Source of the DNA: an uncultured archaeon
Lineage (GTDB): Archaea > Thermoproteota > EX4484-205 > JAAOZP01
Length of the DNA: 15,228 nucleotides
Direction of reading: 5' to 3'
NCBI GenBank assembly: GCA_938045545.1
Contig: CALIBN010000037.1
Span: 1-15,228 of the forward strand
The notes beneath the pieces are model-generated. The model had not been told where the DNA came from and did not search any database. It saw nothing but the letters and a program-made list of their open reading frames with translations. The translations under genes were made by a program, and so were the position numbers. Positions 1 to 4,478 of the stretch are shown here, one piece after another; positions within the stretch are counted from its first letter, which is position 1; every line of letters starts with the position of its first letter.

Positions 1-187
1 CTTTCGAAGAGTAATAGTTTGCCAGGATTGACGCTGAGCCCGCTGGAAGATGTGGACCCTGATTCCTAACCGAGCCCAGGGGAACCAGACCTACAGTAGC
101 CTGTCCAAGCCTATATCTGATCTCGTAATATGTGGACTCGAATACTCCATGAAGCGTCTCCTCATTCTTATTGCCTAAGGGGGCCAT
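1..187 (-). CDS. Creatininase/ArfB/MftE-family protein, N-terminal part (continues past left edge); metal ligands substituted
   Basis: Not in the ORF track. The minus frame from ATG at 187 is open to the edge: MAPLGNKNEETLHGVFESTYYEIRYRLGQATVGLVPLGSVRNQGPHLPAGSASILANYYSSK. This matches the family N-terminal pattern T-x-x-E...(L/V)PxGSxEQHGPHLPxGTD. BRE/TATA-like AAAAGGATATATA (minus strand, 213-225) lies ~30 nt upstream. Confidence 0.7.
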   Translation of the reverse strand, partial: MAPLGNKNEETLHGVFESTYYEIRYRLGQATVGLVPLGSVRNQGPHLPAGSASILANYYSSK

Positions 188-398
188 TTCAACATAGACG
201 CTAGAATCCCCCTATATATCCTTTTAATGAATATGTGTCGATGCTAGTCACAGTGTTAAGCCTCTCAGCCATCGCTCAGCGTTGGGCTTAGATTTTAAAA
301 GCTTATTTACACTTCTCTTCAGTAAAATATTTTGCTAGTTGATCTCTGCCATCTCCAGCGATGTTAAAATATAGCTATGCTTAAAAACGACTTCATTA

Positions 399-530
399 TT
401 ACCCTAATGCGCGCGCTAATATGACCTCAACTTCTTGCTCTTCAAAACCAAGGGTGGTTAGAAGTGCTTTATCGATCTCGCAACGCGGTCCAACTCCTTT
501 TTCAAGCTGTTCTAACACTGAAAAGAAACT
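399..530 (-). pseudogene. Short relic resembling the extreme C-terminus of a large archaeal Type IIG/N6-MTase R-M protein
   Basis: Minus frame reads SFFSVLEQLEKGVGPRCEIDKALLTTLGFEEQEVEVILARALG* (stop 399-401), closed upstream by an in-frame TAA. It is protein-like and resembles, from memory, the S(I/V)LEQL...R.EID.A.L..LGF.E.E...IL tail of such enzymes. Unverified. Confidence 0.35.
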
Positions 531-537
531 TTAATAA
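520..537 (+). promoter_or_regulatory. BRE + TATA candidate for the nuclease gene
   Basis: GAAAAGAAAC-TTTAATAA located ~30-37 nt upstream of the TTG at 567. Confidence 0.45.
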
Positions 538-566
538 CCTCTATCATTATTCCCAAATAAGGAATA

Positions 567-1076
567 TTGGGAAGAATAACTGATCTGAATGTCACTGGGT
601 TAAATCCGTCAAAACATGCTGCACTTTTAGGAGATGCTCATGAAATGATTGTCGCGGGTATTTTAACACGTTTAGGATTTGAAGTGGGGTTAATAACTGC
701 CAAAGGAGGACCTTATGATCTATGGGTTATAGGATATAAAGAACCTGGTGGCGAAATAAAACCACTTCGTGTTCAAATTAAGACGGTCTCACAAAAAGGT
801 AATGTTAAATTTATTGGAGGGTTGAGAGGAGGCATAAATCGTCATTATATTCGTCCGAGCCCAAAGGAATATAAATATTCAGAGAAGGATCATGATTTAA
901 TAATAGGTGTTGATACCAATACGTTAGATCTCTATTTGATACCTACTAGATTTATTAAAAAGTGGGGTAAATCCCGCTCAACAGGAAAACTTCAGCCGCT
1001 AAAGAATAACTGGGATATTCTTTTAAACTGGAATGACAATTTTTTAAATAGACTTGAGGAACAATTGTCCCCTTAA
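567..1076 (+). CDS. PD-(D/E)XK-superfamily endonuclease, probable Type II restriction endonuclease
   Basis: GDAHE (motif I Glu), PYDLWV (motif II Asp) and RVQIKT (Q-x-K motif III). 169 aa, TTG start, convergent with a DNA MTase with 1 nt between the stop codons. Confidence 0.8.
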   Translation: MGRITDLNVTGLNPSKHAALLGDAHEMIVAGILTRLGFEVGLITAKGGPYDLWVIGYKEPGGEIKPLRVQIKTVSQKGNVKFIGGLRGGINRHYIRPSPKEYKYSEKDHDLIIGVDTNTLDLYLIPTRFIKKWGKSRSTGKLQPLKNNWDILLNWNDNFLNRLEEQLSP

Positions 1077-1077
1077 G

Positions 1078-2313
1078 TTACTTTTTTTGAAGGATTACCA
1101 AGTTTTCCGTCCTTGTTCTTTTATCGTTTATTCCCGTTGCAGGATTAATACGATATGAAAACAGTCGGCGTGCTACTATTGTGTCTATTAACGTAACTTT
1201 GTGCATCCAGCCTAGTGCCGAAAAATGTTCTGCAAAGATACGATCTATAGGAATCTGGTACCCTCTCATGCTTGTTCGTCCAACGAAGAGGCAAAGATAT
1301 GAGCAAATATTTTCTTGCAAGCGTGTTAATGCTCCTAGAACTCCCCAGAAGTATCTATCATAAATTTTTTGATAATATCCTTCTATCTTATCTCTATATT
1401 GAGAATAAACTTCCGAGTAAATTGTTATAGGATTTACATCTCGGTAAGGGATTTCTAGTTTAGAAAGTTTTTTAATGTAATCCTCTGAATATCCTAGCCA
1501 GAAGAGATCCATTTTAGCCTGACGGATATATTCATGAGATTGTAAATAAGGTGGAGAAGTAATAAGAATGTCCTTCTTTCCTTCCAGCTGCATACTTAAG
1601 GTATCTACACCACCTTTAACAACAGCTTTTGTTTGTTTTGGCGAAAGCAATTGATATTCTTTCATTCTCTTAATCATCTTTCCTATCTCTTCTCCTACCA
1701 TTTGGAAAAATTCATCTTTCCAATTGCGTGCCAACAGGGATTCTATTCTTTTTTTTGATTTTGGTGATTTCGAGAGTTTTTGTCGCTGTGGATCATCGTA
1801 GGAAAAATAACGAGAAGTTTTAAGTAGGGGTATAGTCAAAAGAAGCTTAATATAAGTATCAGTTAAAGAATGATAAAATCCCCATACCTTAAATAAAAAG
1901 GGAAGAAAATCTTGGGGAAACCAGTACTCAAAATTAGACCAGCGTGGAACAAATTCTTCTTTACAACTAGCCATTTCACGCAGCACTTCTCTTAAGTTTA
2001 CTTCTTTAGGTTTCATTATAGCGATTGAATGAAAGGTTTCCAATAGAGGATTAAGATCCCATAACTCATAATTACAGTTATAAATTCTTGCTACAATACC
2101 TGCAGTACCATAACCTGCAAATGGATCGAAAATCTCAATTCCGGGTTTAGCATATTTTTCTAGTACATAAGCAATCACATGAGGAATGAACTTAGCAGGA
2201 TACCTATATAGGCCGAATGTCGCATAAGTTGTTGAGGGAAATGCAATCAAATCACGGAAACGAATTCTTTTCTCTTTTTCCATCCATCTTTCTTTTTCCA
2301 TTTTTACTTGCAC
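1078..2313 (-). CDS. Site-specific DNA methyltransferase, amino-MTase alpha class, probably N4-cytosine
   Basis: Motif X-like YRYPAKFIP and motif I FDPFAGYGT lie near the N-terminus, followed by a central TRD region and then motif IV ITSPPY. This I-TRD-IV order is alpha class, and SPPY is typical of m4C enzymes. Alternative starts are ATG 2301 or 2283. Confidence 0.88.
   Translation of the reverse strand: MQVKMEKERWMEKEKRIRFRDLIAFPSTTYATFGLYRYPAKFIPHVIAYVLEKYAKPGIEIFDPFAGYGTAGIVARIYNCNYELWDLNPLLETFHSIAIMKPKEVNLREVLREMASCKEEFVPRWSNFEYWFPQDFLPFLFKVWGFYHSLTDTYIKLLLTIPLLKTSRYFSYDDPQRQKLSKSPKSKKRIESLLARNWKDEFFQMVGEEIGKMIKRMKEYQLLSPKQTKAVVKGGVDTLSMQLEGKKDILITSPPYLQSHEYIRQAKMDLFWLGYSEDYIKKLSKLEIPYRDVNPITIYSEVYSQYRDKIEGYYQKIYDRYFWGVLGALTRLQENICSYLCLFVGRTSMRGYQIPIDRIFAEHFSALGWMHKVTLIDTIVARRLFSYRINPATGINDKRTRTENLVILQKK
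1082..1088 (+). terminator. Oligo-T terminator candidate for the nuclease transcript
   Basis: T7 run 5 nt after the nuclease stop. It is the antisense of the MTase's terminal Q-K-K codons. Confidence 0.35.
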
Positions 2314-2580
2314 TTATTTAATCCCTAAGCACTTTTTAACCTCCTCTCTATTTGCAAGAACATAATGAGTATATCTTCTGCTTTTGTATTTTATATTCAC
2401 AATACCTTCTCTTATTAGCTTCATCAGTTCCGCTGGGTAGGCCCTAACATCGCTCCACTCCCACCCTAGGTAATGAGGGTCGTTTAAATGGGCTTCCTCA
2501 TGCTCCACAGCCTTCTTAAGTATCTCTATAAACCGGGGGTTCTGAGATATGAAGACCCTATACTTCTCCTCTAGAGACAT
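2314..2580 (-). CDS. 88-aa hypothetical protein with wHTH-like pattern; candidate R-M controller
   Basis: ATG start with a TATA box upstream, and its TAA directly abuts the MTase GTG. PAELMKLIREGIVNIKYKSRRYTHYVL resembles a recognition helix plus the 'L...G.V' wing hairpin of wHTH proteins. Confidence 0.75.
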   Translation of the reverse strand: MSLEEKYRVFISQNPRFIEILKKAVEHEEAHLNDPHYLGWEWSDVRAYPAELMKLIREGIVNIKYKSRRYTHYVLANREEVKKCLGIK

Positions 2581-2618
2581 TGTGTGTCATATATTGTGTG
2601 TATGTATACTATTTAAAT
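2579..2618 (-). promoter_or_regulatory. TATA box with tandem 9-bp direct-repeat operator candidate
   Basis: Minus strand reads ATTTAAAT (2611-2618) AGTATACAT ACACACAAT ATATG ACACACAAT G. The repeats occupy 2593-2601 and 2579-2587 (14-bp period), and the second overlaps the ATG. Confidence 0.6.
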
Positions 2619-2792
2619 TTAGTGTTTTTGTTGCAGGAAAATGGTAGCATGTTACGCTAAGCATCATAACATTTTCTAACATGATTCAGGTTAACGATTT
2701 CGGTAGCAACTTGAAAGCAAACTCTTCATAAGCTGTTAGATGCTAACCACTTTCACCCAACCCTCTCCCTCAAGCGCTTACATACCTACTGT

Positions 2793-2812
2793 TTTAAAAA
2801 GGGGTTTTTAAA
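2793..2812 (+). promoter_or_regulatory. BRE/TATA promoter candidate upstream of the radA-like remnant; also an 8-bp inverted repeat
   Basis: TTTAAAAA-GGGG-TTTTTAAA is a perfect inverted repeat. TTTTTAAA lies 17-24 nt upstream of ATG 2829. Confidence 0.45.
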
Positions 2813-2828
2813 GAACATGTTTTTCGGA

Positions 2829-2919
2829 ATGACTGGCGAATATGAGCTTGAGGATGTTGAGGGCGTTGGCCAAGAAGCTTATGGAGGCAGGCTACGCTAC
2901 CGTCGAACCCCTAGCGGTA
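2829..2919 (+). pseudogene. radA: Frameshifted 5' remnant of radA (N-terminal HhH domain)
   Basis: Frame A (2829-2870) gives MTGEYELEDVEGVG and frame B (2869-2919) gives AKKLMEAGYATVEPLAV. Joined, they match the archaeal RadA N-terminus LEDLPGVGPxTAxKLxEAGYxTxExIAV. Similarity ends at ~2919 and no ATPase domain follows. Confidence 0.7.
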
Positions 2920-2931
2920 TGGGGAGGGTTT

Positions 2932-3064
2932 TCACGGTTACCCCTGAGCGTTAAGCGATGATAGCATGTGCTAACAACAGGGCTGTCGGAGGCCCGGGGT
3001 AACCCTGTGAGGACAGCCCTAGCGTCGCAGGCGAGGCAAACCGGTGCGTGAAAAATCGAAGCCT
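2932..3064. ncRNA. Candidate structured RNA (three-way junction, K-turn-like motif, pseudoknot or alternative pairing)
   Basis: Pairings: GCGATG 2955-2960 / CGTCGC 3023-3028; TAGC-ATGT-GCTA 2962-2973; AGGGCTGTC 2979-2987 / GACAGCCCT 3012-3020; GGTTACCCC 2936-2944 / GGGGTAACC 2996-3004. CGGA 2987-2990 faces GTGAGGA 3007-3013, which favours the + strand. No family recognised. Confidence 0.45.
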
Positions 3065-3166
3065 ACTTCCTCTATTGACCACTAATGTTCTAGAAGGGGG
3101 TTCATCGCTGCATTTGCTCGCTGAAGCTTTTAAGCGTACTGCAAAGATTTATTTATCAAATCTTCA

Positions 3167-3448
3167 GTGCTTGAACTGATGATCCAAGATTACGTGAGCA
3201 GGATAGAGGAGGCCTGCGGGTCCGCTAAGACGAAGGACTATATAGTTATACTGAAACAGGATAGGAGGGAGGAGGCTCTTAAGAGGGCTCTTGAAAAAAG
3301 CAAGGTCTTAGCAGAGGTTCACGGGGTGGCTGTGAAGGCGAGCTTCATGGGCAGGGAGTTCACAGCTTTCACAAACGGAAGGTTGATGTTCAAATCCCTT
3401 AGGGACAGGGATGAGTTGAAAACGCTGCTTGAGGAACTCTTGAAGTAA
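3167..3448 (+). CDS. Small hypothetical protein, similar in pattern to the C-terminal domain of some ThiF/MoeB proteins (TBP-like half-fold)
   Basis: Codon usage appears host-like. Contains an N-terminal ACG and C-terminal FTAFTNGRLMFKSLRDRDE. Start may be ATG 3179; TTTATTTA at ~3148-3155 is a TATA candidate. Confidence 0.65.
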   Translation: MLELMIQDYVSRIEEACGSAKTKDYIVILKQDRREEALKRALEKSKVLAEVHGVAVKASFMGREFTAFTNGRLMFKSLRDRDELKTLLEELLK

Positions 3449-3518: not shown

Positions 3519-4478
3519 ATGTCCTCCAAGAAAACGGAACTAGCAGGATGCCTGTTTGTTTCTGTCGCGGCAATCATATGGGGCTCAAACGGGGTGATTG
3601 TCAACAGCGTTCCCTTAAACGCTTACGCTATAGCTTTCCTCCGGGTTTTATTCGCCAGCATAGTCTTAACCCCTCTTCTGATCCTGGCTAGGAGGCAGGA
3701 AGCCTCCCGGGCTGCTAGAGCTTGGAGGAGCATGCTTGCCTTAGGAGCGTTTCTAAGCATGGGCTGGGCTTTCCTCTTCCAGTCTATGAAGCTTATCGCC
3801 ATCGCGGACGCTGTTCTACTCAACTACATGGCGCCGGTTTTCGTAGCGCTTTTAGCATCCTTGTTTCTGAGAGAGGGGGTTGAGAAGACGACTATCCCTG
3901 CCCTAGCCATGTGCATGATCGGAATGCTAATCATTTCATACGATTATGGTCTTCAAACCGTGGGCTTAAACATGCTTGGTGTACTATACGGGTTGCTCGC
4001 AGGCCTAGCTTACGCCGGGTTCATCATCCTCTCCAAGAAAACCCTCGCGGACTGTTCAAGCCTCGCAGTGGCCTCGTACTCCTATCTTGCCAGCGCATTA
4101 TTCCTCTCGCCTTCACTATCATTCTTCAACCCTTCTTTAAACCTGTTTTCATGGATGCTTCTGTTCATCCTGGGCTTCTTTAACACGGCCTTCGCGGTCA
4201 CACTCTATTTGAAAGGCCTTAGGCTGATTAAGGCTCAGAAGGCTGTTGTCTTCACCTATATGGAACCAGTTAGCGCCGCAATATTCGGGTTCCTCGCGCT
4301 GGGCCAGCAGCTCACCTTGCAAACTTTAATCGGCGGGCTGATGATCGTCTCCGCAGGATACCTAGTGGGATCCAGGTGGCACAGGGTTAGGCATCATCCT
4401 CCGAGCGCCCTCGCATATATTCTGCTAACGTCTTCCGGAGTCAGCGGGTTGGGATGCTTATCAAGGTTCCTCTCATAG
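3519..4478 (+). CDS. EamA/DMT-family transporter
   Basis: About 10 hydrophobic helices in two EamA repeats (AAIIWGS...AFLR; LLNYMAPVFVALL; YMEPVSAAIFGFL). The last ~33 codons run towards and into the convergent ADH gene. Confidence 0.93.
   Translation: MSSKKTELAGCLFVSVAAIIWGSNGVIVNSVPLNAYAIAFLRVLFASIVLTPLLILARRQEASRAARAWRSMLALGAFLSMGWAFLFQSMKLIAIADAVLLNYMAPVFVALLASLFLREGVEKTTIPALAMCMIGMLIISYDYGLQTVGLNMLGVLYGLLAGLAYAGFIILSKKTLADCSSLAVASYSYLASALFLSPSLSFFNPSLNLFSWMLLFILGFFNTAFAVTLYLKGLRLIKAQKAVVFTYMEPVSAAIFGFLALGQQLTLQTLIGGLMIVSAGYLVGSRWHRVRHHPPSALAYILLTSSGVSGLGCLSRFLS

Follow-up and report, generated by a model that had tools for sequence, protein, structure and literature searches.

A small winged-helix protein that travels with its own promoter in front of archaeal restriction and defence operons is a probable controller of these systems

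The stretch of DNA analysed here, hereafter the window, comprises 15,228 nucleotides (nt) of contig CALIBN010000037.1 from an uncultured archaeon, and the module under study (positions 567-2618) is occupied by three open reading frames (ORFs): a restriction endonuclease gene of 169 amino acids (aa) on the forward strand and, on the reverse strand, genes for a type II DNA methyltransferase (MTase) of 411 aa and for an 88-aa protein, P0003, which heads the MTase operon (Table 1). The TAA stop of the 88-aa gene (2314-2316) directly abuts the MTase GTG start at 2313, a TAA|GTG junction present exactly where an earlier note on this DNA had placed it, and the MTase and nuclease genes are convergent, with stop codons 1 nt apart. 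The evidence set out below indicates that P0003 belongs to a winged-helix (wH) family whose gene is kept together with its promoter in front of exchangeable gene sets, and that it is probably a portable on/off controller of restriction and defence systems.

P0003 has no counterpart among Pfam (including Xre-type helix-turn-helix [HTH] domains, none at E<=1), NCBIfam or PADLOC families. Its homologs form 40 clusters with 49-97% identity, whose members are named 'hypothetical protein' apart from one stray 'MazG' label without support, and the closest clusters in the Protein Atlas are likewise unnamed (0.89-0.90). A HMMER search over all 1.84 billion representatives returned 178 sequences with E<=1e-3, of which 38 reached E<=1e-10 and a single one E<=1e-30. 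The family is one of thermophilic archaea and is rare, occurring in 3 of the 401 genomes sampled from the phylum, this one included. The AlphaFold2 (AF2) model of P0003, built on a 32-sequence alignment, reached a predicted local distance difference test (pLDDT) score of 93.4 and places helices at residues 3-13, 17-30, 49-57 and 78-85 and a beta-hairpin at 61-66/71-75. It thus combines a helical core, a recognition helix (49-57) and a two-stranded hairpin wing, as in the wH superfamily. A long, Trp-rich loop (31-48), holding the invariant LGWEWSDVRAYP, precedes the recognition-type helix, and the GWEWSDVRAYPAELMKL segment, singled out earlier as a motif, is indeed the most conserved part of the family. 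The invariant loop-helix-wing region contains the conserved basic residues R46, K54, R57 and K66, with positions 68-69 mostly basic; the basic residues sit in the short recognition-type helix and the wing (KYKSRRYT), an arrangement that would fit DNA binding.

At the level of sequence, the P0003 alignment profile retrieved only chance-level Tudor domains among Protein Data Bank (PDB) sequences (E 0.38-0.7). In the comparison of structures, the best Foldseek E-value was only 0.011. VIA-align, run with the model against 48,161 chains, found wH domains over 60-87 residues: the ORC2 WH domain (Z 9.4, root mean square deviation 2.7 over 87 residues), an M. jannaschii domain (8.7), the N-terminal WH domain of Rio2 (8.4), Orc1/Cdc6 WH domains (7.6-8.1; 7.9 for S. 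solfataricus Orc1/Cdc6) and ArsR/SmtB, MarR, PagR and TubR proteins (6.3-7.9; SmtB/CzrA/ArsR 6.4-7.3, TubR 6.8-7.6). With this model, these Z-scores of 9.4 to 6.3 and the lack of a Pfam HTH match, the earlier description of a winged, non-Xre protein holds, and P0003 is predicted to be a winged helix. A homodimer prediction with two copies of P0003 scored 0.00 against a mark of 0.42 and is not used as evidence either way.

An indication of what the protein does comes from its neighbours. In a scan of genome and metagenome contigs, 46 loci (L numbers) carried a real homolog; L003 and L004, bacterial contigs with matches of 11-20 residues, were left out as spurious. Three partial matches (L045, L046, L048) were left out before counting, and the 43 full-length loci fall into 30 clusters at a nucleotide identity of the wH gene of at least 97%, or 31 with the window. 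Twenty clusters are close to P0003 (at least 65% identical), and 18 of these are informative once L016, at a contig end, and the relic L013/14 are set aside. A recognised restriction-modification (R-M) or defence gene stands directly downstream, on the same strand, in 14 of the 18 (14 of 29 informative clusters overall), and the gap between the wH gene and the next gene is mostly 0-10 nt or an overlap. Since MTase-like genes number a handful per genome, we estimate that this association is far above any plausible base rate. The partners are of several kinds (Table 1), and neither the MTase nor the nuclease of the window has a homolog at any of the 43 wH loci.

The two enzymes form an R-M pair, as had been proposed, and can be assigned to type II. 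The MTase matches the PADLOC model MTase_II (1.8e-24, residues 28-410) and, weakly, Pfam N6_N4_Mtase (7e-4), and has no relative by sequence among solved structures. In DNA MTases that depend on S-adenosylmethionine, motif I reads FxGxG and motif IV (S/D/N)PP(Y/F); the present enzyme, encoded as a separate protein, has FAGYG at residues 65-69 and SPPY at 253-256, so that motif I lies ~185 residues ahead of motif IV, which we take to be the alpha-class order. The nuclease is matched only weakly by Pfam PDDEXK_5 (E 0.0089, below the cut-off), and its AF2 model (pLDDT 79) has I-Ssp6803I as top Foldseek match (4.9e-6), followed by a SPARDA nuclease, Hjc and EcoRV. Its family comprises 249 clusters, and among the 120 listed most members measure 164-172 aa, a few 142-156 or up to 211; D51, R68 and Q70 are invariant and Q-x-K is conserved. 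The suggestion that this convergent gene begins with TTG is borne out by the family, since the consensus N-terminus MGKITDLN corresponds to (M)GRITDLN here and members cover 99-100% of the query. The TATA-like box ahead of the nuclease gene is spaced from the start codon exactly as in the wH promoter and suggests a separate nuclease promoter.

The endonuclease gene is adjacent to the MTase gene here, and this linkage is conserved. In genome G269, homologs of the MTase (69% identity) and of the nuclease (61%) are direct neighbours, and in G161 more remote homologs (24% and 28%, respectively) have a 4-nt overlap; each genome carries the two genes on one strand with M ahead of R, and neither pair is accompanied by a wH gene. 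The wH gene, formerly counted as the third member of the module, is therefore better seen as an add-on to this R-M unit than as an ancestral part of its core. Within the phylum sample, 5 other genomes contain MTase orthologs (43-69% identity), and those in G362, G316, G118 and G393 (43-62%) have different neighbours and lack the wH gene.

The extent of what is shared between wH loci was determined by blastn of window positions 1-3300 against the 46 loci. Matches begin at 2618/2624 (TATA box) and end at 2311/2327 (wH stop codon); in the MTase and nuclease genes the only match is a 19-nt stretch from the MTase 5' end, shared with the L013 relic. The alignment of L001 with L007 and L019 (76% identity) starts ~42 nt before the wH start, again at the TATA box, and continues through the whole HerA-NurA-MTase operon, so the conserved unit begins at the promoter. 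L021 and L005 have the wH gene and its upstream neighbour in common, and their homology stops at the wH stop codon; L029 and L030 have 385 nt of promoter and wH gene in common at 95% identity, in front of enzymes that are only 24% identical. From these boundaries and from the swap between L029 and L030, it follows that promoter and wH gene move, or are kept, as one module before interchangeable defence genes.

This modularity bears on an alternative in which P0003 would be a DNA-binding accessory or sensor subunit of the downstream enzymes, recruiting them or sensing foreign DNA as a free-standing AAA+ N-terminal domain. In many representatives the wH domain does form the N-terminus of MCM/RuvB-like AAA+ ATPases (~300-340 aa, with MCM P-loop matches), and it is fused to a TatD-type DNase in one; tandem arrays of wH and wH-AAA genes lie beside hsdR-ygjP, ORC/Cdc6 WH domains lead the structural matches, and all known partners (HerA, NurA, HsdM, IIG, SNF2) act on DNA. 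We nevertheless consider a subunit role unlikely, for the following reasons: (i) the partners come from at least five unrelated families while the wH protein stays 65-97% identical; (ii) the nearly identical cassettes of L029 and L030 precede widely diverged enzymes; (iii) M-R pairs of the window's type do without a wH gene in two genomes; and (iv) promoter and leader are inherited together with the wH gene. A regulator with its own cis site tolerates partner swapping and a dedicated subunit would not, so the modular cassette favours a regulator.

Further occurrences of the domain and remnants of the cassette were also recorded. P0066 (199 aa), P0114 (252 aa) and P0168 (770 aa) represent three further architectures containing the wH domain, which elsewhere is fused to a TatD-type DNase, stands C-terminal to a ChlI/Lon-like domain, or is part of an AAA+ protein split by an intein that carries a LAGLIDADG endonuclease. 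At L013:3985-4330 (identical in L014), 175 nt upstream of radA, there is a 5'-truncated wH relic (88% amino-acid identity) that retains the initial 19 nt of an MTase gene of the window's type; it lies between GC-rich sequences of the GCGCGCGCTAG / CTAGCGCGCGC type and looks like the scar of a deleted R-M unit.

Table 1. Features of the module in the window (window positions) and genes found downstream of the wH gene at the homolog loci (locus numbers)
Feature	Location	Strand	Remarks
Low-GC island	300..2700	.	GC 35-37% vs 44-58% elsewhere in the window; carries all three genes
TATA-like TTTAATAA, candidate separate nuclease promoter	530..537	+	29 nt before TTG; read from sequence
Restriction endonuclease gene, 169 aa	567..1076	+	TTG start; PD-(D/E)XK fold, D51 ... 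Q70-x-K72
Type II DNA MTase gene, 411 aa	1078..2313	-	GTG start 2313; alternative in-frame ATGs 2301, 2283
T7 run, candidate archaeal oligo-T terminator	1082..1088	+	past nuclease stop, inside MTase 3' end; read from sequence
Promoter+wH cassette, ~310 bp	2311..2618	-	sole part of the island with nucleotide homology to other wH loci
wH protein P0003 gene, 88 aa	2314..2580	-	ATG start 2580-2578; first gene of wH-MTase operon
Near-palindrome GACACACAATGTC, 13 nt, candidate operator	2576..2588	-	5' leader and start codon; 12/13 positions of GACACACAGTGTC
ACACACAAT copy 2	2579..2587	-	overlaps ATG (2580-2578) by 2 nt; inside conserved GACACACA element
ACACACAAT copy 1	2593..2601	-	variable purine-pyrimidine-alternating spacer between TATA box and expected transcription start
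TATA box TTTAAATA	2610..2617	-	29 nt upstream of ATG
Type II MTase	window	same as wH	downstream of wH
HerA-like ATPase, then NurA, then HSDR_N+N6_Mtase protein	L001/10, L007/8/9, L019/20	same as wH	downstream of wH
HerA	L011, L012		downstream of wH; contig ends inside HerA
N-terminal HerA fragment only	L018		89% identical
Type I HsdM with HsdS	L005/6, L015		downstream of wH
65-aa ORF, then HsdS	L021/22		downstream of wH
Type IIG-like Eco57I/MmeI/PglX-like enzymes	L029, L030		downstream of wH
Type IIG-like enzyme	L026		after short intervening ORF
PLD-nuclease/SNF2 protein	L017		downstream of wH; matches PbeA, ZacB, DrmD models
Unknown ~125-aa protein	L023, L027		exception among close clusters
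Four unknown genes	L024		exception among close clusters
No co-directional gene	L025/28		exception among close clusters

The promoter itself was compared across the family. The TTTAAATA octamer stands 24-41 nt before the start codon in 16 of the 22 listed family promoters besides the window's; L015 and L037 have it too, at distances outside this range. Downstream of the TATA box, the earlier note had pointed to two exact ACACACAAT copies with a 14-bp period as an operator lying over the transcription start; both copies are there, the second overlapping the ATG. Archaeal transcription usually starts 22-24 nt past the TATA box, which would place the two 9-mers at about -14..-6 and +1..+9, where two tandem wH monomers might bind them. 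In L001, L011 and L021 the TATA box is followed by an ACA-rich run of loose similarity, and GACACACA precedes the start; direct repeats are also what the bacterial regulator RptR uses (PMC12255303). Other comparisons speak against the repeat. A direct repeat of at least 9 nt within 40 nt arose in 4.0% of 20,000 dinucleotide-preserving shuffles (63-nt promoter, non-overlapping copies), so that the observed one is barely above chance in a promoter region that is AC/AT-alternating, and the window contains 3 occurrences of the 9-mer when one mismatch is permitted, where 1.83 are expected. No direct repeat of this kind of 7 nt or more was found in any of the 18 other distinct family promoters, and the tandem repeats expected over the transcription start of homologs are thus missing there; in L001 and L011, which do have a second ACACA run, the two runs are 20-22 nt apart instead of 14, and the close relatives L012, L016, L017 and L019 have no ACACA run after the TATA box. 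Only copy 2 coincides with a conserved element. We hold a direct-repeat operator to be improbable.

What the family does conserve is a GACAC element immediately at the start codon. GACAC is found at -8 or -6 in 14 of the 19 distinct promoters (the window and 13 of the 18 others), GACA occurs 23 times in the -32..+8 region of the 19 promoters, compared with 3.6 +/- 1.9 expected from mononucleotide shuffles, and in the conserved leaders GACAC(AC)A stands immediately 5' of the start codon; most family members also have a GGTGA Shine-Dalgarno-like motif. In 7 of the 18 other promoters, the element and the first coding bases, GTGTC, together make a perfect palindrome, GACAC-N(1-3)-GTGTC; among them are L001, L015, L019 and L021, with the perfect 13-mer GACACACAGTGTC, from which the window departs by a single change that creates its ATG start and weakens the palindrome. 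Between family members, conservation averages 0.59 (ungapped) over positions -12..-1, above the 0.42 of 4-fold degenerate sites in the gene. The combination of TATA box and 13-mer element occurs once in the 2.03-Mb genome, at the promoter of the wH gene itself, which fits autoregulation, and the 13-mer has no copy near the nuclease promoter. If transcription starts 22-24 nt past the TATA box, the conserved element would span +1 to ~+13, where archaeal repressors commonly act. Taken together, we give somewhat better than an even chance to the proposal that the wH protein binds GACAC...GTGTC at its own start site and autorepresses the wH-MTase, or wH-defence, operon.

Other roles and copies of these leader sequences were considered as well. 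Read as an RNA hairpin, the palindrome of L001 and L019 yields -5.6 to -5.9 kcal/mol at 37 C (z -1.7 to -2.0), which is too weak for a thermophile, and the window's leader does not form this hairpin. A scan of viral contigs for the 16-mer GGTGACACACAGTGTC gave 9 exact matches, a number that a rough estimate puts within chance for a collection of this size. A second TATA-like sequence, TTAAATAA, lies at 2315-2322 on the reverse strand, over the last wH codons and the stop codon and ~25-30 nt before the in-frame MTase ATG at 2283; it may be an internal promoter that lets the MTase escape wH control.

Several observations weigh against control by autorepression. At the DNA level, (i) the candidate operator is short, its arms measuring 4-6 bp, and one half lies in coding sequence (GTG TCN, that is, Val/Met-Ser), so that, together with the Shine-Dalgarno-like GGTGA, part of the leader conservation may reflect these constraints; and (ii) the promoters with an ATG start (the window and L007) keep GACAC without a compensating change, leaving the palindrome imperfect exactly in the locus under study. 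At the protein level, (iii) the top structural matches (ORC2, Rio2 and ORC1 WH domains) include protein-contact domains, not sequence-specific DNA binders; and (iv) the presence of the same module on MCM/RuvB-like AAA+ ATPases could point to a non-regulatory role in DNA handling. Finally, concerning gene order, (v) the counts overstate independence because the loci are kin and come from few hot-spring metagenomes; (vi) a G175 homolog with 37% identity lies beside nuo/mrp-type genes; and (vii) the prediction that homologs sit directly upstream of MTases or other defence genes, which stood for the close clusters, failed for the distant ones (<65% identity), in which 0 of 11 has a recognised R-M gene directly downstream. 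In three distant clusters (L002/35, L036, L037) the wH gene is followed by an unknown pair of 224 aa and ~250 aa, in five an MCM/RuvB-like AAA+ ATPase comes after the wH domain or is fused to it, and in the remainder nothing telling lies downstream. The association with defence is a property of the close wH subfamily, not of the whole superfamily.

All three genes of the module lie on an island of low GC content that is not common to the genus: the nuclease was found in none of the 16 other genomes of the genus and the wH family in one, as a wH-AAA fusion, and synteny with same-genus genomes starts only at 3179 (2909 in one). Missing genes and late synteny fit recent acquisition, and the best explanation of positions 567-2618 is a horizontally acquired type II R-M unit whose MTase gene stands behind a portable leader cassette, composed of a strong archaeal TATA promoter, a short conserved leader and the wH gene. 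Neither Rfam (0 matches) nor a tRNA scan (0 genes) of the window revealed an RNA gene or a tRNA attachment site marking the island. In a search of sequencing runs, no RNA run was among those listed; one DNA run contained 80% of the words and four hot-spring runs 6%. A mobile origin could also mean that the wH gene is itself cargo of a mobile element, serving plasmid or virus maintenance, TubR-like partition or anti-restriction rather than defence control; the island, an archaeal integrase fragment just upstream of the gene in L025 and the presence of TubR among the fold matches would suit such a role. It is nonetheless very improbable in our judgement, given that no homolog was found in 2.9 million viral contigs, 72,556 plasmids and 50,697 phage records, and that the gene is not scattered but fixed as the first gene, tightly coupled to defence operons.

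Several sequences at the edges of such elements deserve mention. Between the island and the conserved flank, 2750-2920 and 2930-3021 are multi-copy and match unlinked same-genus contigs at 70-94% identity; the former contains a possible ~45-aa ORF from 2817 behind a TTTTAAAAA motif, and a similar sequence (CACCCAACCCTCTCCCTCAA...) lies just past the wH relic in L013. The integrase fragment of L025, of archaeal phage type, occupies L025:3478-3795, and L028:~4290-4400, past the wH stop codon, resembles a tRNA 3' end (…GGTTCAAATCCC…CCA), although ARAGORN calls no tRNA there; these features of L028 and L025 possibly mark the border of an integrated element.

The arrangement invites comparison with known regulators of bacterial defence. 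The C proteins (C.PvuII, C.BamHI, C.Esp1396I and others) are what P0003 is proposed to be, small autogenous regulators encoded within an R-M unit by the first gene of an operon and with a site in their own promoter, and the role proposed is timing and level control after transfer (PMC12707154). They differ in that C proteins have an all-helical HTH domain of the Xre/lambda-cI type, whereas the P0003 model has a beta-hairpin wing and P0003 no Pfam HTH match; C genes are usually placed ahead of the nuclease gene and transcribed together with it, whereas the P0003 gene precedes the MTase gene and the nuclease gene is convergent; C proteins bind C-box inverted repeats in sigma-70 promoters, whereas P0003 is associated with an archaeal TATA promoter and a candidate 13-nt near-palindrome; and the P0003 family also heads systems other than type II.

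RptR, a helical (alpha1-alpha4) repressor of 79 aa, is closer in layout: like P0003 it has ~80 aa and is encoded by a first gene, in its case directly upstream of hsdM in a defence island; protein and promoter site are conserved together, and it represses its own promoter through short repeated sites, direct repeats that each contain a 6-bp palindrome (PMC12255303). The wH clusters L005/6, L015 and L021/22 have an RptR-like position before type I genes, upstream of hsdM in L005/6 and L015; across the wH promoters the repeats are not conserved, although the GACAC element is. As described, RptR is a protein of Gammaproteobacteria tied to type I systems, is all-helical without close structural homologues and uses TAGCTA palindromes in direct repeats, and this description sets it apart from P0003, which is archaeal, is modelled as a winged helix with a beta-hairpin and heads at least five kinds of systems. 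BrxR/CapW proteins have a winged HTH, co-localise with many defence systems and repress their operons (PMC9122601, PMC11662680), and in these respects P0003 would be like them; at ~300 aa, however, they consist of three domains (wHTH-WYL-WCX), of which WYL senses a ligand, whereas P0003 is a bare 88-aa domain with no WYL match and no evident sensor module. With the C-terminal WH domains of ORC/Cdc6 and with ArsR/SmtB repressors the likeness is at fold level only, with no relationship in sequence, and P0003 has its long Trp-rich loop, not a regular helix, before the recognition helix.

Judged by fold and domain content, P0003 is therefore a member of none of these groups (C proteins, RptR or BrxR/CapW). 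By analogy, it appears to be a new family in a new domain of life that follows the same logic as C proteins, RptR and BrxR with a broader range of partners. The control logic had been thought undescribed; RptR before hsdM (PMC12255303) and a C-family gene upstream of hsdMSR in Mycoplasma gallisepticum (PMC12707154) follow the same logic, and that claim is not supported. In the article passages searched (PMC4158269, PMC3632139, PMC12707154 and PMC12255303 among them), no account of the wH family or of an archaeal R-M controller was found, although a mention at the level of arCOGs may exist.

Building on the observed gene content, fold, family distribution, gene order, cassette boundaries and leader conservation, we infer DNA binding, operator identity, repression and timing as follows: (i) P0003 would bind the GACAC element lying across the transcription start and start codon of its own gene; (ii) binding would repress its own operon; (iii) expression of the MTase, or of other defence genes, would consequently be high on arrival in a naive cell, which would amount to the 'methylation burst' suggested earlier, and then be held at a set level; and (iv) the nuclease would be transcribed separately, from its own convergent promoter, and with the T7 run as the only visible stop signal, convergent transcription would leave room for antisense interference.

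Some of the gene sets behind wH genes are of interest in their own right. The HerA-like ATPase (DUF87) - NurA - HSDR_N+N6_Mtase operon (L001:4263-8252, L007:4263-8255, L019:4212-8243; also L011, L012 and L018), whose third protein matches PADLOC MTase_I (7.9e-43) and mad2 (2.4e-27), is a candidate HerA-NurA-coupled R-M-like defence system. The pair of ~224 aa and 250-275 aa (L002:4261-5687, L036:1861-3281, L037:479-1955), with overlapping starts and stops and no Pfam, PADLOC or NCBIfam match, is a candidate new defence pair by association, and at L024:662-4639 an operon of 213, 209, 273 and 639 aa shows no families but a weak Csa3-like match (4.4e-5) in the second protein. An NCBIfam scan of the uncharacterised downstream partners gave nothing besides weak MTase matches for L026. 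A free wH gene followed by one or two wH-AAA+ genes (MCM/RuvB-like P-loop) in tandem is seen at L038:53-5390, L039:52-5256, L032 and L034. In L038 the array comes immediately behind genes for a type I HsdR and a YgjP-like metallopeptidase, and L031 and L033 have a ~206-nt deletion in such an array. A gene for a ClpP-like SDH-type serine protease lies between hsdM and hsdS at L006:2724-3650 and is absent from the otherwise 97% identical L005.

To conclude, much is known about how R-M and other defence systems are regulated in bacteria, from work on C proteins and BrxR/CapW and, from 2025 onwards, on RptR, whereas the searches made for this analysis turned up nothing on such regulation in archaea. 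Archaea transcribe their genes with TATA-binding protein (TBP), transcription factor B (TFB) and a Pol II-like RNA polymerase. A regulator of 88 aa that brings its promoter along would account for the safe installation of toxic gene sets after horizontal transfer in archaea, with the cassette swapped among type I, type II, type IIG, HerA-NurA and PLD-SNF2 operons. More tentatively, and short of an even chance in our view, the cassette could be a general mobile 'controller leader' of archaeal immune operons, the counterpart of C proteins, RptR and BrxR with a different fold and a TATA/TFB promoter, and the wH-AAA fusions a related, DNA-sensing branch. If so, the cassette would serve as a guilt-by-association flag, and uncharacterised gene sets behind wH genes, such as the 224+250-aa pair (L002, L036, L037), the four-gene operon of L024, the ~125-aa gene of L023 and L027 and the HerA-NurA-HSDR_N/MTase operon, would count as novel defence systems of archaea. 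The regulator and its promoter would also be of practical use, as a small promoter/repressor pair in the genetics of thermophiles and as a marker in the search for new defence genes in archaea.

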